Part shown: piece after piece, positions 6,363-15,958 of the stretch | Numbering within the stretch: position 1 is the stretch's first letter | How the letters are laid out: every line of letters starts with the position of its first letter | Sequence record: OP688485 | Strand: one strand, 5' to 3' | DNA length: 64,000 nt | DNA from: Escherichia phage EP_H11 | Position numbers and translations under genes: made by a program | The notes under the pieces: model-generated | Told to the model about the DNA's origin: nothing | The model's input: only the letters and a program-made list of their open reading frames with translations | The model's database searches: none

Positions 6363-6398
6363 CCGCTTCTTTTACGGCTCCAAAGGCTGTTAAGGTGT
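6363..6398 (+). promoter_or_regulatory. class I 36-nt element, copy 2
   Basis: CCGCTTCTTTTACGGCTCCAAAGGCTGTTAAGGTGT; 21 nt before ATG 6420. Confidence 0.65.
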
Positions 6399-6419
6399 CG
6401 AAACTAATGAGGACAGAAC

Positions 6420-7160
6420 ATGTTTGGTAAACATATCGAGTGTAACTTCGTTCCTGGTACCAAAGTCACGAAGGCTTCACTGGGTAACGGAGGTACCTCC
6501 TACTTAGTCCAGAAGCATTTCCTCCAGTGGATGTTTCGTAATGAGATCATCTCTGGCCCAGTCCTGGATATGGGACTGGGTCGTGGTGAAATCGGTCTGG
6601 CACTCCGTAATGCTGGATTCGAAGGTCAGATCACTGGTCTGGACATCTGCGAAGACTACATCAAAGGCAGTGTAAATGTATATAGCGATATCTACATCTG
6701 CAATATAGTTGAGTTACTGAAAGATCTTCCTATTGAAGAGCTGGATAAATTCGGAACTATTATCTGGCTGGATGTTCTGGAGCATCTGGATGCTGAAGAT
6801 GGCCTGATGGTCCTGGAGAAGCTGTTCCAGTCTAAGGCTAAAATCGTTATCGGCACCCCTAACTACGAGTATCGTCAACGTGGTACCGAGACTAATCCTT
6901 TCGAGGAGCATAAGTCTCATTGGGACTGTCGACTCCTTACCCAGTTTAATCCAGATCTCGCACTGTTCGATAACATCGGTGCTGCTACTTATCTGTGGGA
7001 CCAACCAGATAAGACTGGTAATATTCCTCTGCTTAAGTACGAGCAGTCTAAGGTACAGAAACGTGAAGTGCCTAAGCTGCTGGAAGATACTGGATTTGGC
7101 GAAGGAATCTGGGATGTGTCCGCTAAGGTGAAGATAGCCGATCTTTCAGAATTAAAGTAA
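6420..7160 (+). CDS. class I SAM-dependent methyltransferase
   Basis: Motif I VLDMGLGRGEIG, post-I ITGLD, motif IV-like IIWLDVLEHL. Confidence 0.7.
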   Translation: MFGKHIECNFVPGTKVTKASLGNGGTSYLVQKHFLQWMFRNEIISGPVLDMGLGRGEIGLALRNAGFEGQITGLDICEDYIKGSVNVYSDIYICNIVELLKDLPIEELDKFGTIIWLDVLEHLDAEDGLMVLEKLFQSKAKIVIGTPNYEYRQRGTETNPFEEHKSHWDCRLLTQFNPDLALFDNIGAATYLWDQPDKTGNIPLLKYEQSKVQKREVPKLLEDTGFGEGIWDVSAKVKIADLSELK

Positions 7161-7203
7161 TATATACATAGCCATCTTACGAGGTGGCTAGATATCTATT
7201 ATT

Positions 7204-7239
7204 TCGCTCTTTCTAGGGTTCGAAAGGCTGTTAGGTTGT
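7204..7239 (+). promoter_or_regulatory. class I 36-nt element, copy 3
   Basis: TCGCTCTTTCTAGGGTTCGAAAGGCTGTTAGGTTGT; 22 nt before ATG 7262. Confidence 0.6.
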
Positions 7240-7261
7240 ACAAGTTAACTGAGGAATTAAA

Positions 7262-13455: not shown

Positions 13456-13482
13456 GGGAAAGATTCTTAATTGGAGAGAATA

Positions 13483-14205
13483 ATGAGAGACTATAGTATC
13501 CCAGGCTACAGTGTAATTATGTCCGGTGCACAGGGTACCGGTAAATCAACCTTGGCTAAAGGTTGGGAAGAATCAACTGAGTGTACTTTTCGTGCGGTAC
13601 AGACTCGTGATCATCTTCCGTTGGGAGTTACATCCCATATGGATATTCTGCGACTAGCTGTGGAAGATCCAATGGAAGCTGTGGAGTTCCAGCTACGTCT
13701 TATTCGCCAGAGAACTCAGATGTTTAAGGATGCCTACAATCGCGGCGAATTGATCGTCAGTGATCGTGCGGTATTCGATTCGTACGTTTACTTCCTGCTG
13801 CATAACAGTATGTTCGCCAGCCAGGAAGCTCGTGATGAGGCACTGCGTCTCAGTAACGAGTCTATTGATTATTATAACATGACTCTGTTCTTCAATACGA
13901 AGGATAAGAGTATCGAGGACAATAACTTCCGTGTTGTTGATCCGGAGTACTCTGTAGCAGTCAGTTCTACCCTCCTTAAGGTAACTATGCGTGCCTACGA
14001 GGAGCGATTCGGTGCTGCGTTGTGTAATTCTGTAACTCTGAATCATCCGGTGCATCCTGGATCAATCACAGCTCGTTTCACTAATACTGGTAAAGGTATT
14101 ATGATCCTGAATGAGCCATCTGGTATGATTCCTCAGGAAGCCCGTCTGGAGTTACTGTCCTCTGCAGTTAAGTCTATTGATTCAGTGCGTAAGGACTCTA
14201 AATGA
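13483..14205 (+). CDS. P-loop nucleotide/nucleoside-monophosphate or DNA-base kinase
   Basis: Walker A MSGAQGTGKST. Size and position next to the TS-like gene. Start moved to ATG 13483 behind GGAGAG. Confidence 0.55.
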   Translation: MRDYSIPGYSVIMSGAQGTGKSTLAKGWEESTECTFRAVQTRDHLPLGVTSHMDILRLAVEDPMEAVEFQLRLIRQRTQMFKDAYNRGELIVSDRAVFDSYVYFLLHNSMFASQEARDEALRLSNESIDYYNMTLFFNTKDKSIEDNNFRVVDPEYSVAVSSTLLKVTMRAYEERFGAALCNSVTLNHPVHPGSITARFTNTGKGIMILNEPSGMIPQEARLELLSSAVKSIDSVRKDSK

Positions 14206-15275
14206 TCTCGGTAATTCGTGGTAACAGTAATACTGAAATCCTGGTTAACAGCATCAATGAGATGGATAAGGTTGGTGAGTTGCAGAAGTCTAAAACTTCT
14301 GTTAACTCCTCGGCGGTGGTATCCATTGGTCATGCTGTAGTTGAGTTAAGTAATCCGATTCATCGTTGGATGGCTCATCCAGAACGTAAAGACAATATCC
14401 TCGGAATCATGGGGGAAGTATTGTGGGTACTGTCTGGTGGCTATGAGATCGATAACTGGATGTCGATTATGGTTCCTCGCGCTAAGATGTTTAGCGATGA
14501 TATGGTTACCTGGCGTGGTGCTTACGGTGAGCGTCTGTATAACTACAATCAACTCCAGACCATAACAGATCGCCTCCGCTCTGATCTGGGTAACCGTAAG
14601 TGTGTAGCTACTATTCATGATCCCAGCCGTGATTCGGATGTAGGTCTGGTGAATAGCATCGGCAGCATCAATACAGCAGATATGATTTGTAACATTGCTC
14701 TGTCGTTTAAGTACCGTAATGGTGGTCTGGACTGCACGGTATTCAACCGTAGTAATGATTTGATCTGGGGATTGACTAACGTTAATCTGGTGGAGTTCAC
14801 GATCATTCAGGAAATCATCGCAACTATGCTCGGAGTGAACATGGGCAGCTATGTGGTGATGACGGACGATCTCCACTGGTATCCGGAAGTGTCGAACATC
14901 AAGAAACAGGTAAGTAATATCAGAGCTTATGTCGACGACATTAACGAAGCTCCGGTAACTACTATTGATCTCGGATCACTAAATTCCTGGCATAAGATCC
15001 GTACCTACTTCCAGCATTACATCACCACTATAGAAGATGCTGCTTCTCGTTATAATAGCGATCACAGTATTCTAGAATACGTAATGGAAGATGTTGGTCG
15101 AGAGTTCCAACCAGGATCAACTCTGGATGTAATGATGTGGTTAGCAGGTGCTCATTATCTATGTAAGACTACTGGAGCTCACATGTCTATCCAGTGCGAG
15201 CATCTGGTTAATTCACCATTCGTGAAATGGGTCGCGAACCGCCTCGGGGATAAGTCTCCGTTCATTCTGGAATAA
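14202..15275 (+). CDS. thymidylate-synthase-fold enzyme, candidate pyrimidine (dUMP/dCMP) hydroxymethylase
   Basis: ThyA-like blocks MGEVLWVLSG, catalytic Cys context DMICNIALSF, FNRSNDLIWGLTNVNLVEF (cf. YQRSxDxxLGxPFNIASY), TDDLHWY (cf. GDxHxY). Has extra N- and C-terminal extensions. Confidence 0.75.
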   Translation: MISVIRGNSNTEILVNSINEMDKVGELQKSKTSVNSSAVVSIGHAVVELSNPIHRWMAHPERKDNILGIMGEVLWVLSGGYEIDNWMSIMVPRAKMFSDDMVTWRGAYGERLYNYNQLQTITDRLRSDLGNRKCVATIHDPSRDSDVGLVNSIGSINTADMICNIALSFKYRNGGLDCTVFNRSNDLIWGLTNVNLVEFTIIQEIIATMLGVNMGSYVVMTDDLHWYPEVSNIKKQVSNIRAYVDDINEAPVTTIDLGSLNSWHKIRTYFQHYITTIEDAASRYNSDHSILEYVMEDVGREFQPGSTLDVMMWLAGAHYLCKTTGAHMSIQCEHLVNSPFVKWVANRLGDKSPFILE

Positions 15276-15311
15276 CCGCTCTTTTTAGGGCTCGAAAGGC
15301 TGTTAAGGTGT
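15276..15311 (+). promoter_or_regulatory. class I 36-nt element, copy 7
   Basis: CCGCTCTTTTTAGGGCTCGAAAGGCTGTTAAGGTGT. Starts on the nucleotide after the TS-like stop codon. Confidence 0.65.
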
Positions 15312-15358
15312 GGGAGGCAACTTCCATACCTTTATTTTTGTAACTTAGGAGAAATTAC

Positions 15359-15958
15359 ATGAAAGATCTTTTTAAGGTACCAGTGTGTACCAATAACGTG
15401 AATCGTTTCGCAGGTAAGCAAGTACTGTCTCATCGCTCTACTATCTCGGAGCATAGCTTCGAAGTTACTTACTACTCTACTCTGATTGTTCAGAAACTGG
15501 TGATGGATGGATTTTTAACTGCTGAGCAGGGTCTGGAAGTAAATCAGTACTCGTTGGTTCACGACATTCCAGAGATCTTTACAGGTGATGTCCCCTACAC
15601 TGCTAAGGCTCGCTTCCCAGAGTTAAAAGAGACTCTGAATAAAGTTGAGCAGGAAATCTGGGAAGAGGTACTTCCTACTTTCCGCACTCCTGCATCTGCC
15701 GAAGCTAAGTTCATCTGTAAAGTTGCAGATGCGATTGCGGTATCTCGTGAGATCATGACTGAGTTCAGCATGGGTAACATCTTCTTTGGCGAAAGCGAGC
15801 TGGAGAACTGCCGCAACATCTTCAGTACCTGCTTCAATAAGTACAAAGACGAAGTGAGTGATGATGTATGGATGGGTACTCTCCAGTCTCTTCTCCATAT
15901 GGCACATGGTAGTTCAATCGAGCACCTGGTTAAAGAGGCTATTGGCAATGCAGATTAA
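15359..15958 (+). CDS. HD-domain 5'-deoxynucleotidase (YfbR-like)
   Basis: ISEHSFEV...LVHDIPEIFTGDVP...KVADAIA collinear with E. coli YfbR motifs (EHS, HD, TGD, D). Confidence 0.75.
   Translation: MKDLFKVPVCTNNVNRFAGKQVLSHRSTISEHSFEVTYYSTLIVQKLVMDGFLTAEQGLEVNQYSLVHDIPEIFTGDVPYTAKARFPELKETLNKVEQEIWEEVLPTFRTPASAEAKFICKVADAIAVSREIMTEFSMGNIFFGESELENCRNIFSTCFNKYKDEVSDDVWMGTLQSLLHMAHGSSIEHLVKEAIGNAD

Follow-up and report, generated by a model that had tools for sequence, protein, structure and literature searches.

A ten-gene island in Escherichia phage EP_H11 as a candidate gene set for two-stage thymidine hypermodification

What is made by the ten genes that lie between the topoisomerase and primase genes of Escherichia phage EP_H11? 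The stretch analyzed here, called the window, comprises 64,000 nucleotides (nt) of sequence record OP688485. At 6420-15958 it carries ten open reading frames (ORF1 to ORF10), all on the + strand, with two topoisomerase II genes on the left (3050-6315) and primase, helicase, and family A DNA polymerase genes on the right (16258-22208). The closest public genome, that of Escherichia phage vB_EcoM_IME392 (MH719082), is 93.6% identical over the whole island; its record labels eight of the ten genes 'hypothetical protein'. Codon-level comparison with IME392 gave nonsynonymous-to-synonymous substitution ratios (dN/dS) of 0.007-0.10 for all ten, so each is a constrained coding gene under strong purifying selection. 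Five Logan contigs with diverged versions of the island (L008-L012) completed the comparison set. A first, sequence-only reading had described ten co-oriented genes with codon usage like that of the core genes, and both descriptions hold: G+C content and codon usage are close to those of the replication genes (relative synonymous codon usage, r = 0.95).

With somewhat more confidence than doubt, the homologies can be read as those of a two-stage thymidine-hypermodification gene set, which would act first on nucleotides and then on the DNA polymer. Stage 1 is well supported, because the homologies behind it are strong. The more general proposal of the sequence-only reading, DNA hypermodification built on a hydroxymethyl-pyrimidine, is supported by a candidate hydroxymethylase of the thymidylate synthase (TS) fold, an aGPT-Pplase1 protein, and the dcd and dut genes. 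The core features are these:

9643..10254, + strand: ORF4, PIG-L/LmbE-family deacetylase, 203 amino acids (aa); Pfam PIG-L, 3.4e-14
10261..11295, + strand: ORF5, GT-A (GT2-like) transferase from a rare family whose C-terminal domain is conserved, 344 aa; from the family profile
11343..12422, + strand: ORF6, orphan, possible GT-B-like transferase, 359 aa; faint Glyco_trans_1_2 match
12422..13393, + strand: ORF7, clade-1 aGPT-Pplase (Pfam HMUDK_hel), 323 aa; PF18723 and phrog_2396
13483..14205, + strand: ORF8, P-loop kinase, 240 aa from the ATG at 13483; Pfam, PHROG, and motifs
14202..15275, + strand: ORF9, candidate deoxyuridine monophosphate (dUMP) hydroxymethylase of the TS fold, 357 aa; Pfam, PHROG, and alignments
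15359..15958, + strand: ORF10, YfbR-like HD 5'-deoxynucleotidase, 199 aa; Pfam YfbR-like, 1.6e-14, and HD_3, 2.6e-6
18909..22208, + strand: family A DNA polymerase, which would have to copy a modified template, 1099 aa; Pfam DNA_pol_A, 6e-32, the sole Pfam domain seen
56040..56510, + strand: dUTPase, supplying dUMP; Pfam dUTPase, 2.4e-35
56781..57404, + strand: dCTP deaminase-like protein, supplying dUTP; Pfam DCD, 1.1e-23

ORF9 narrows the choice of base. It matches Pfam Thymidylat_synt (2e-11) and phrog_3676 (6e-71) and runs about 115 residues past the C-terminal end of the TS model, confirming both the fold and the C-terminal extension described earlier. Identity to the TS homologues of ViI-like phages is 44-46%, and one of these homologues carries the annotation deoxyuridylate hydroxymethyltransferase. 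Among proteins of solved structure, ORF9 is closest to the CMP hydroxymethylase MilA (3e-15); the best thymidylate synthase reaches only 4.5e-6. Residues Cys163, Arg183, Asp186, and Asn195 are in place. In two concordant alignments, Asn195 falls on Asn177 of ThyA and on the Asp of the cytosine-specific MilA, so the substrate should be a uracil nucleotide. ORF9 is therefore a candidate uracil-reading dUMP hydroxymethylase. The sequence-only reading had left the choice between 5-hydroxymethyluracil (5-hmU) and 5-hydroxymethylcytosine to the residue at this position. Asparagine here, together with the ViI-type closest relatives and with dcd and dut feeding dUMP, favors the uracil derivative and speaks against the cytosine one.

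ORF8 and ORF10 frame this enzyme. ORF8 matches AAA_28 (2e-9) and phrog_2107, 'thymidylate kinase' (1.2e-11), matches dNK and Tmk weakly, and contains a Walker A and a DR motif (SDRAVFDSY); it is the P-loop kinase that had been predicted. Its true start is the ATG at 13483, preceded by the ribosome-binding site GGAGAG, and its gene overlaps that of ORF9 by 4 nt. An ORF8 profile found nothing significant among PDB sequences. The positions of its homologues are informative: Acinetobacter phage Ab1-TPeters, a phage without any aGPT-Pplase, has kinase, TS, and HD genes in this order too, and in phage RP13 the homologue adjoins an HD gene, far from the aGPT-Pplase gene ORF120. Such company argues that ORF8 is probably the kinase of a nucleotide module, acting on 5-hydroxymethyldeoxyuridine (5-hmdU) monophosphate or another deoxynucleoside monophosphate, and not a DNA kinase. 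ORF10, correctly taken for a YfbR-type HD nucleotidase, also matches the NCBIfam 5'-deoxynucleotidase model (2.6e-6), and its pairing with a TS homologue recurs in phage M6 (gp58-gp59) and Ab1-TPeters.

The presence of dcd and dut elsewhere in the window, noted in the sequence-only reading, is confirmed by their Pfam matches. The IME392 orthologue of 56781-57404 is listed as a dCTP deaminase (PMC12686479, Table 1). EP_H11 thus has both the TS homologue and the dUMP supply route (dCTP deaminase) of the RP13-like/SP15-like set. The IME392 polymerase has been grouped with those of YerA41, SP-15, RP13, and Carin-5 (PMC12686479; bioRxiv 10.1101/2025.03.26.645540). A fused UDG-like domain is a mark of SP15-like polymerases; in the EP_H11 protein, Pfam shows DNA_pol_A only.

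In the proposed first stage, Dcd and Dut would turn dCTP into dUTP and then dUMP, which ORF9 would convert to 5-hmdUMP. ORF8, translationally coupled to ORF9, would phosphorylate this product to 5-hmdUDP, and a host enzyme would complete the triphosphate. ORF10 would drain the competing canonical nucleotide, and the SP15-like polymerase of the phage would put 5-hmdU in place of T.

ORF7 is the strongest pointer to a second stage. It matches PF18723 at 4.4e-35 (121.8 bits against a cut-off of 25) and phrog_2396 at 9e-41, so the aGPT-pyrophosphorylase motif reported for this gene was rightly recognized; the family is the aGPT-Pplase1 of the literature. M6 gp55 and RP13 ORF120 belong to it too, the latter being 33% identical to ORF7 (8e-45) and named 'aGPT-Pplase1' (as g120) in the literature. 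Residues invariant in clade 1 are kept: PWT; F..N..R..D; F.AY; GPG..G; and Cys301-Glu302..Lys305. The Cys301-Glu302 pair is invariant across the clade, and the C-terminal motif in which it lies resembles that around the essential Cys of M6 gp51, a clade-2 protein. This suggests that ORF7 may perform related C6-thiol chemistry on a 5-substituted uracil in DNA. No other member of the aGPT-Pplase superfamily is present in the window or in IME392.

ORF6 is tied to ORF7 by position. Its stop overlaps the ORF7 start by 1 nt (ATGA), an arrangement kept in three diverged contigs (L008, L010, and L012). Relatives occur only in IME392 and a few Logan contigs; scans of IMG/VR and JGI metagenome contigs found none. 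Glyco_trans_1_2 matches the same C-terminal stretch in two diverged members of the family (0.01 and 0.044), making a GT-B-like transferase possible. Pfam scans of ORF6 and two divergent homologues gave no match to T4 alpha- or beta-glucosyltransferase, and hhalign comparisons with HMUD2 and with the RP13 GT1 protein were negative. In M6 the DNA kinase gene gp54 adjoins gp55, and ORF6 occupies the equivalent position next to ORF7; by analogy, ORF6 may supply an activating or transferred group.

The two preceding genes look like sugar-tailoring enzymes. ORF4 reaches 53.9 bits against a Pfam PIG-L cut-off of 28.2 and carries the metal motifs PHHDDE (at residue 9) and HQDH (at residue 105), as expected of the PIG-L/LmbE deacetylase it had been called. 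The best NCBIfam matches are BshB1 and BshB2, at scores well under the equivalog cut-offs, and ORF4 is conserved in L008, L010, L012, L011, and L009. ORF5 has no direct Pfam match, and a full HMMER search of 1.84 billion proteins yielded 15 representatives of its family. Within the family a DDD motif is invariant, the D of a GED motif is nearly so, and the N-terminal IIPTYHR is GT2-like. Two members match Glyco_tranf_2_3 at 3.5e-5. A shallow alignment returned nothing significant among PDB sequences; the deeper family profile reaches the GT-A enzyme TarS (5tze; E = 0.004). To call ORF5 GT-A-like is a fair reading of these similarities: the earlier GT-A label stands through the family profile and the two members, and not through any direct match.

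The left arm adds three further genes:

6420..7160, + strand: ORF1, class I S-adenosylmethionine (SAM)-dependent methyltransferase, 246 aa; an orthologue passes the Pfam cut-offs
7262..8170, + strand: ORF2, orphan enzyme, possibly ATP-grasp-like, 302 aa; motifs
8174..9556, + strand: ORF3, BCCT-family secondary transporter, core only, 460 aa; Pfam BCCT, 1.6e-91

ORF3 is the clearest of these, and its designation as a BCCT transporter was accurate: the Pfam match extends over positions 1-481 of 485. BetP is its best solved relative (2.7e-48). Compared with BetP, residues W189, W194, Y197, W374, W377, and F380 are conserved, W371 is replaced by Y, and W373 by A. The aromatic box of BetP, which we take to consist of W189, W194, Y197, W373, W374, and W377 and to bind a trimethylammonium head group, is thus present in ORF3 at five of its six positions; a largely intact box for a quaternary ammonium compound is predicted. 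At 89% identity, ORF3 is the island protein most conserved between EP_H11 and L008.

ORF2 always lies directly upstream of the BCCT gene, across a 3-nt gap. It matches nothing in Pfam, PHROG, or NCBIfam, its family profile finds nothing significant among PDB sequences, and four relatives were found. Invariant motifs are RRDRVHGGKGAG and FYIETNFR; GGKGAG and E-x-N-x-R would fit an ATP-grasp enzyme. An AlphaFold2 (AF2) model built from five sequences has a predicted local distance difference test score (pLDDT) of 41, and its top 50 Foldseek matches are mostly ATP-grasp proteins, at a best E of 4.6e-3 and template-modeling (TM) scores of 0.24 or less. Comparisons by hhalign with the L012 ATP-grasp protein (0.3% probability) and with RP13 HMUD2 were negative. 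ORF1 matches Pfam Methyltransf_25/31/23 slightly under threshold, contains the motif VLDMGLGRG, and has a dN/dS of 0.028 against IME392. The SAM methyltransferase assignment is not reached by its own Pfam matches; it is carried by the L012 orthologue, which is 51% identical and passes the cut-offs.

In the second stage as we picture it, ORF7, with the coupled ORF6, would engage 5-hmU in DNA. ORF5, and possibly ORF6, would add a sugar, most simply an N-acetylhexosamine (HexNAc) from a host uridine diphosphate sugar, from which ORF4 would remove the acetyl group to expose an amine; such deacetylated-aminosugar chemistry is plausible. In the optional left arm, ORF3 would import a quaternary-ammonium-type compound, ORF2 (possibly an ATP-dependent ligase or kinase) would activate or attach it, and ORF1 would methylate. 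The expected product is a thymine derivative, bulky, sugar-bearing, and probably cationic, which would shield the DNA from host nucleases. In its boldest form the proposal is of a base unlike those described so far: 5-hmU bearing a deacetylated aminosugar that is joined to a quaternary-ammonium group or methylated into one, the precursor of the group being imported from the medium by the BCCT protein, and with the clade-1 aGPT-Pplase and ORF6 starting the chemistry independently of a kinase. This form is unlikely.

Diverged relatives separate a stable core from a variable arm. The core (PIG-L, ORF5, ORF6, aGPT-Pplase1, and AAA_28 kinase genes) is kept down to about 40% identity. Only in L008 does the contig extend far enough to include the TS and HD genes, which follow the core there. 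The left arm varies in a modular way. In EP_H11 and IME392 it consists of methyltransferase, ORF2, and BCCT genes. In L008 it encodes a DXD glycosyltransferase, a paralogue of ORF5, two proteins resembling phosphatidylserine decarboxylase and ATP-grasp enzymes, respectively, and a CxxCxxCC protein; ORF2 and BCCT come next. In L012 it comprises a DXD glycosyltransferase, a methyltransferase, an ORF5 paralogue, a decarboxylase (5.5e-12), and an ATPgrasp_Ter enzyme (5.3e-8), and lacks ORF2 and BCCT. Across L008, L010, and L012, ORF2 and BCCT are both present or both absent: ORF2-ORF3 is one optional two-gene module. The extra tailoring genes of the diverged islands (L008, 1956-5860; L012, 3831-7962) imply, as far as gene content goes, that the end products made within the lineage are related but differ in their chemistry.

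A more distant relative, Ab1-TPeters (PP763253), has about 20 core genes in common with EP_H11, at amino-acid identities of 30-50%, and carries the kinase-TS-HD trio and a dCTP deaminase without an aGPT-Pplase. There (11704-15593; L004, 11998-14530), two GT4 glycosyltransferase genes lie directly 3' of the topoisomerase II genes, an arrangement that suggests direct glycosylation of 5-hmU in Ab1-TPeters.

The island is also organized in a common way. Its genes form six units (ORF1; ORF2-ORF3; ORF4-ORF5; ORF6-ORF7; ORF8-ORF9; ORF10), and the class I element said to head each of them is indeed found, as AAAGGCTGTTA, in every one of the six intergenic gaps. On the + strand of the window this sequence occurs 16 times, against about one copy expected by chance. 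It belongs, as the downstream half, to a bipartite element, CCGCTCTTT-N~10-AAAGGCTGTTA-N3-TGT, kept at equivalent places in IME392 and in contigs L008 and L010:

6352..6398, + strand: bipartite promoter-like element CCGCTTCTTT ... AAAGGCTGTTAaggTGT, heading unit 1
7223, 9564, 11303, 13439, and 15295, + strand: further island copies of the AAAGGCTGTTA box, equivalents of the unit-1 element

The bipartite element also precedes the topoisomerase (3033), DNA polymerase (18879), and ligase (38067) genes. It is a putative promoter.

Several points weigh against a two-stage modification pathway. The literature searched reports no chemistry for IME392 or EP_H11 DNA. IME392 is a deposited complete genome, whereas the DNA of YerA41, RP13, and Carin-5 resisted standard sequencing; any modification apparently did not block the sequencing of IME392. 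At E <= 0.1, no island ORF matches the Pfam families HMUD1 (PF18748) or HMUD2 (PF18747), and phmmer searches with M6 gp54 and RP13 ORF133 were negative in the window and in IME392. Nor does any island ORF match the clade-2 aGPT-Pplase family (ADDT; PF18724), for which phmmer and tblastn searches with M6 gp51 were negative in the window and the whole IME392 genome. M6 gp55, which belongs to clade 1, was dispensable in vitro, so catalysis may not be the role of this clade. PIG-L genes are also known from phages in which nothing points to a DNA role, and the BCCT gene could be a stand-alone osmoprotection gene. For ORF6, the family profile matches nothing among PDB sequences, an hhalign comparison with a three-sequence GT4 profile was negative, and an AF2 model from three sequences (pLDDT 41.5) shows only a Rossmann-like N-terminal domain, so that its Foldseek results are hints. 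With Glyco_trans_1_2 at E = 0.01 as the best match, the proposal of a T4 beta-glucosyltransferase-like GT-B enzyme at 11343 is not supported. For ORF2, the motifs and the predominance of ATP-grasp folds among the Foldseek matches keep the ATP-grasp-like label alive; lack of a family match, non-significant scores, and a poor model tell against it, and the assignment is weak.

Three other explanations need to be set beside the two-stage one, and ORF8 is the pivot of the first. It may be a divergent 5-hmdU DNA kinase (5-HMUDK), in which case ORF7 would displace the phosphate with a small imported nucleophile, such as choline, and the glycosyltransferase-like and PIG-L genes would act later or on another acceptor. 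After all, neither the window nor the complete IME392 genome encodes another Walker A protein of kinase size, and the ORF8 gene comes after that of ORF7, which keeps the Cys-Glu pair of the clade-2 transferases. A trimethylammonium head group would suit the aromatic box of the BCCT protein, the nucleophile used by ViI gp247 is a hydroxyl, and relatives carry phosphatidylserine-decarboxylase-like and ATP-grasp genes, reminiscent of a logic in which an amino acid is added and then decarboxylated. A choline adduct would be the trimethylated analogue of the 5-(2-aminoethoxy)methyluridine of ViI. Against all this, ORF8 gives no HMUDK_HMUD1 match and resembles M6 gp54 only at the P-loop; its homologue travels with TS and HD genes in a phage that has no aGPT-Pplase; the RP13 copy is far from ORF120, and RP13 has an HMUD2 protein. 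L012, moreover, keeps the core without BCCT or ORF2, so an imported compound is not an essential first adduct. We consider a DNA-kinase role for ORF8 improbable. A variant, in which ORF7 and ORF8 form a split 5-HMUDK, was downgraded: ORF8 lacks the HMUD1 signature and accompanies TS and HD genes in the aGPT-Pplase-free phage.

The locus could instead be composite: only ORF7-ORF10 with dcd and dut would act on DNA, yielding 5-hmdU or a small derivative, while ORF1-ORF6 would serve another target, for instance by glycosylating virion proteins or glycans of the host envelope, or by taking up osmolytes so that the infected cell stays productive. PIG-L genes without a known thymidine link are found in mycobacteriophages and Arthrobacter phages (annotated as glucosaminyl deacetylase) and in Campylobacter and Vibrio phages; BCCT proteins are the classical osmoprotectant importers, and ORF5 and ORF6 are without characterized relatives. 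The 1-nt overlap that joins ORF6 to ORF7 in three diverged contigs cuts across such a division, as does the PIG-L, ORF5, ORF6, and ORF7 order held at about 40% identity. Every unit has the promoter-like motif found at replication genes, and all are flanked by topoisomerase and primase genes, a long way from the structural module. In RP13 and Carin-5, enzymes of these types are encoded next to modification or replication genes, and HexNAc is a constituent of Carin-5 DNA. A composite locus seems still less likely than a DNA kinase. Least likely by far is ordinary nucleotide metabolism, in which ORF9 would act as a plain thymidylate synthase and ORF8 as a thymidylate kinase, ORF10 would be a housekeeping nucleotidase, and the DNA would carry no modification. 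It has the labels on its side ('putative thymidylate synthase' for ORF9 in IME392; 'thymidylate synthase' and 'thymidylate kinase' in PHROG). ORF9, for its part, falls far below every cut-off of the NCBIfam thymidylate synthase models (at best 44.9 against 174.55), has its nearest relatives among the ViI-type enzymes of phages that are known 5-hmdU producers, and is nearer to MilA than to any solved thymidylate synthase; a plain thymidylate synthase was rejected on these grounds. An aGPT-Pplase gene, moreover, has no role in unmodified DNA.

Some neighboring features deserve mention. Split genes at 26582-28096 and 29676-31244 resemble RNA polymerase beta and beta' and are so annotated in IME392; the Ab1-TPeters homologue has Rpb1 domains. 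A multisubunit RNA polymerase of the phage's own might possibly read the 16-copy bipartite motif. In the gaps at 9592-9618 and 15305-15332, a GC-rich hairpin followed by a T-run lies 3' of the promoter-like motif and 5' of the start codon, and could be a 5'-leader structure or attenuator; in the first two island gaps the order is reversed, with the hairpin upstream of the motif. A family X DNA polymerase gene adjoins an NAD-dependent ligase gene at 37272-40053, a base-excision-repair pairing also discussed for YerA41-like phages (bioRxiv 10.1101/2025.03.26.645540). ORF10 is 99.8% identical to its IME392 counterpart at the nucleotide level, against 90-95% for the other nine island genes, which suggests a recent recombination tract ending near ORF10. 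The end of ORF10 is overlapped by an ORF of 106 aa (15948-16268) that fills what looks like a gap ahead of the primase gene. A 113-aa gene occupies this position in L008; neither matches Pfam, and the stretch is unannotated in IME392.

By hypermodifying thymidine, phages protect their DNA against restriction enzymes and CRISPR; standard sequencing is blocked as well. For the sugar-bearing class (SP-15, YerA41, Carin-5, and RP13), biosynthesis is unsolved and the hosts are awkward. The EP_H11 island is compact, belongs to an Escherichia coli phage lineage with a complete relative genome (IME392), and has natural variants that differ in their tailoring arms; it is thus a tractable entry point to glycosylation or activation of 5-hmU on DNA, to the function of clade-1 aGPT-Pplases, and to the possible drawing of an environmental metabolite into phage DNA. 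If the unlikely proposal of a kinase-independent start by ORF7 and ORF6 is true, clade 1 gets its first function and a kinase-independent activation of 5-hmU in DNA is revealed. The island enzymes are also possible tools for site-directed DNA decoration.

Thymidine-modified DNA in IME392 has already been predicted. A 2025 preprint and the Carin-5 paper report aGPT-Pplase1, the TS homologue, and dCTP deaminase in IME392 and EP_H11, make that prediction, and detect no 5-HMUDK (bioRxiv 10.1101/2025.03.26.645540; PMC12686479). Discussion of the other island genes was found nowhere in the literature searched. Nor did it yield a BCCT, deacetylase, or glycosyltransferase reported together with a 5-hmdU phage modification, and an importer gene is absent from the DNA-modification pathways described there.

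How does the island compare with known systems? With the T-even phages (gp42 and the alpha- and beta-glucosyltransferases) it shares a TS-fold hydroxymethylase acting at the nucleotide level, a phage nucleotide kinase, exclusion of the canonical nucleotide, and possible glycosylation of DNA. The T-even base is cytosine, whereas Asn195 indicates uracil here; the T4 glucosyltransferase families are not matched; and dCTP is deaminated to feed dUMP. The T-even half of the sequence-only reading is therefore not borne out, since the enzyme is not a dCMP hydroxymethylase and ORF6 is not detectably a T4-type glucosyltransferase.

With M6, ViI, PhiW-14, SP10, and PaMx11 (Lee et al. 2018, 2022), the island shares the pair of dUMP hydroxymethylase and HD nucleotidase (M6 gp58-gp59), a clade-1 gene (gp55), and, with ViI-like phages, the clade of ORF9. 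The M6-type system needs an HMUD1 DNA kinase and a clade-2 amino-acid:DNA transferase, neither of which was found in the island. Its tailoring enzymes are of the pyridoxal phosphate, radical SAM, flavin adenine dinucleotide, and acetyltransferase kinds; the island has glycosyltransferase-like, PIG-L, and transporter genes instead. The logic of SP10, PhiW-14, ViI, and M6, which the sequence-only reading had also invoked, is only half present: the hydroxymethylase candidate and the clade-1 aGPT-Pplase are there, and no HMUD1 or HMUD2 kinase or clade-2 ADDT was found in the window or the whole IME392 genome.

Two further systems offer partial parallels. Mycothiol and bacillithiol biosynthesis proceeds in the order glycosyltransferase (a GT-B N-acetylglucosamine transferase), PIG-L deacetylase, ligase, to which the island is analogous. 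As in the mycothiol, bacillithiol, and glycosylphosphatidylinositol (GPI)-anchor pathways, a PIG-L protein with metal motifs accompanies glycosyltransferase-like genes and a possible ATP-dependent ligase. The island acceptor would be DNA, however, and the ligase candidate is unrelated to MshC and BshC. Vibrio phage 150E35-1 likewise places a BCCT gene inside an enzyme set that would activate and transfer an imported compound, although its transporter is only 24% identical to ORF3 and the island has no choline kinase, cytidylyltransferase, or LicD. In that phage (OX241562, 7827-10828) a LicC/LicA-like cytidylyltransferase/choline-kinase fusion, a BCCT protein, and LicD are encoded in a row, labeled 'coil containing', 'TMhelix containing', and LicD in the record; they appear to form a complete pathway for phosphocholine import, activation, and transfer in a lytic Vibrio phage.

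The closest likeness is to the RP13/SP15-like phages (SP-15, YerA41, Carin-5, and RP13), whose polymerase subfamily is shared according to the literature. RP13 has an aGPT-Pplase1 with PIG-L and GT1 genes nearby. In its genome (LC554890), the PIG-L protein ORF106 (1e-18; 3098-3739), the GT1-like ORF112 (6481-7593), and ORF133 (20341-21597) are all encoded within about 10 kb of ORF120. ORF133 matches PF18747 (HMUD2, 5-hmdU DNA kinase 2) at 1.4e-13; by contrast, the preprint found no 5-HMUDK detectable in RP13 (bioRxiv 10.1101/2025.03.26.645540). Carin-5 has glycosyltransferases and an N-acetylglucosamine-deacetylase-like gene beside its polymerase gene, and about 75% of the T in its DNA is decorated with hexoses, a HexNAc, phosphate, and an unknown residue of 216 Da. 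The HMUD2 kinase, WbqC, and inositol-phosphate synthase of RP13 have no counterpart in the island, which encodes no nucleoside diphosphate-sugar pyrophosphorylase; conversely, its BCCT, ORF2, and methyltransferase genes are not described in the RP13-like group. ORF5 and ORF6 have no detectable homologue in RP13/SP15-like phages, and the RP13 and Carin-5 genes are not orthologous to ORF4-ORF6, yet sets of glycosyltransferase and deacetylase genes recur across the polymerase-defined group. It is with RP13, Carin-5, YerA41, and SP-15, and not with T4, that the island is best compared.

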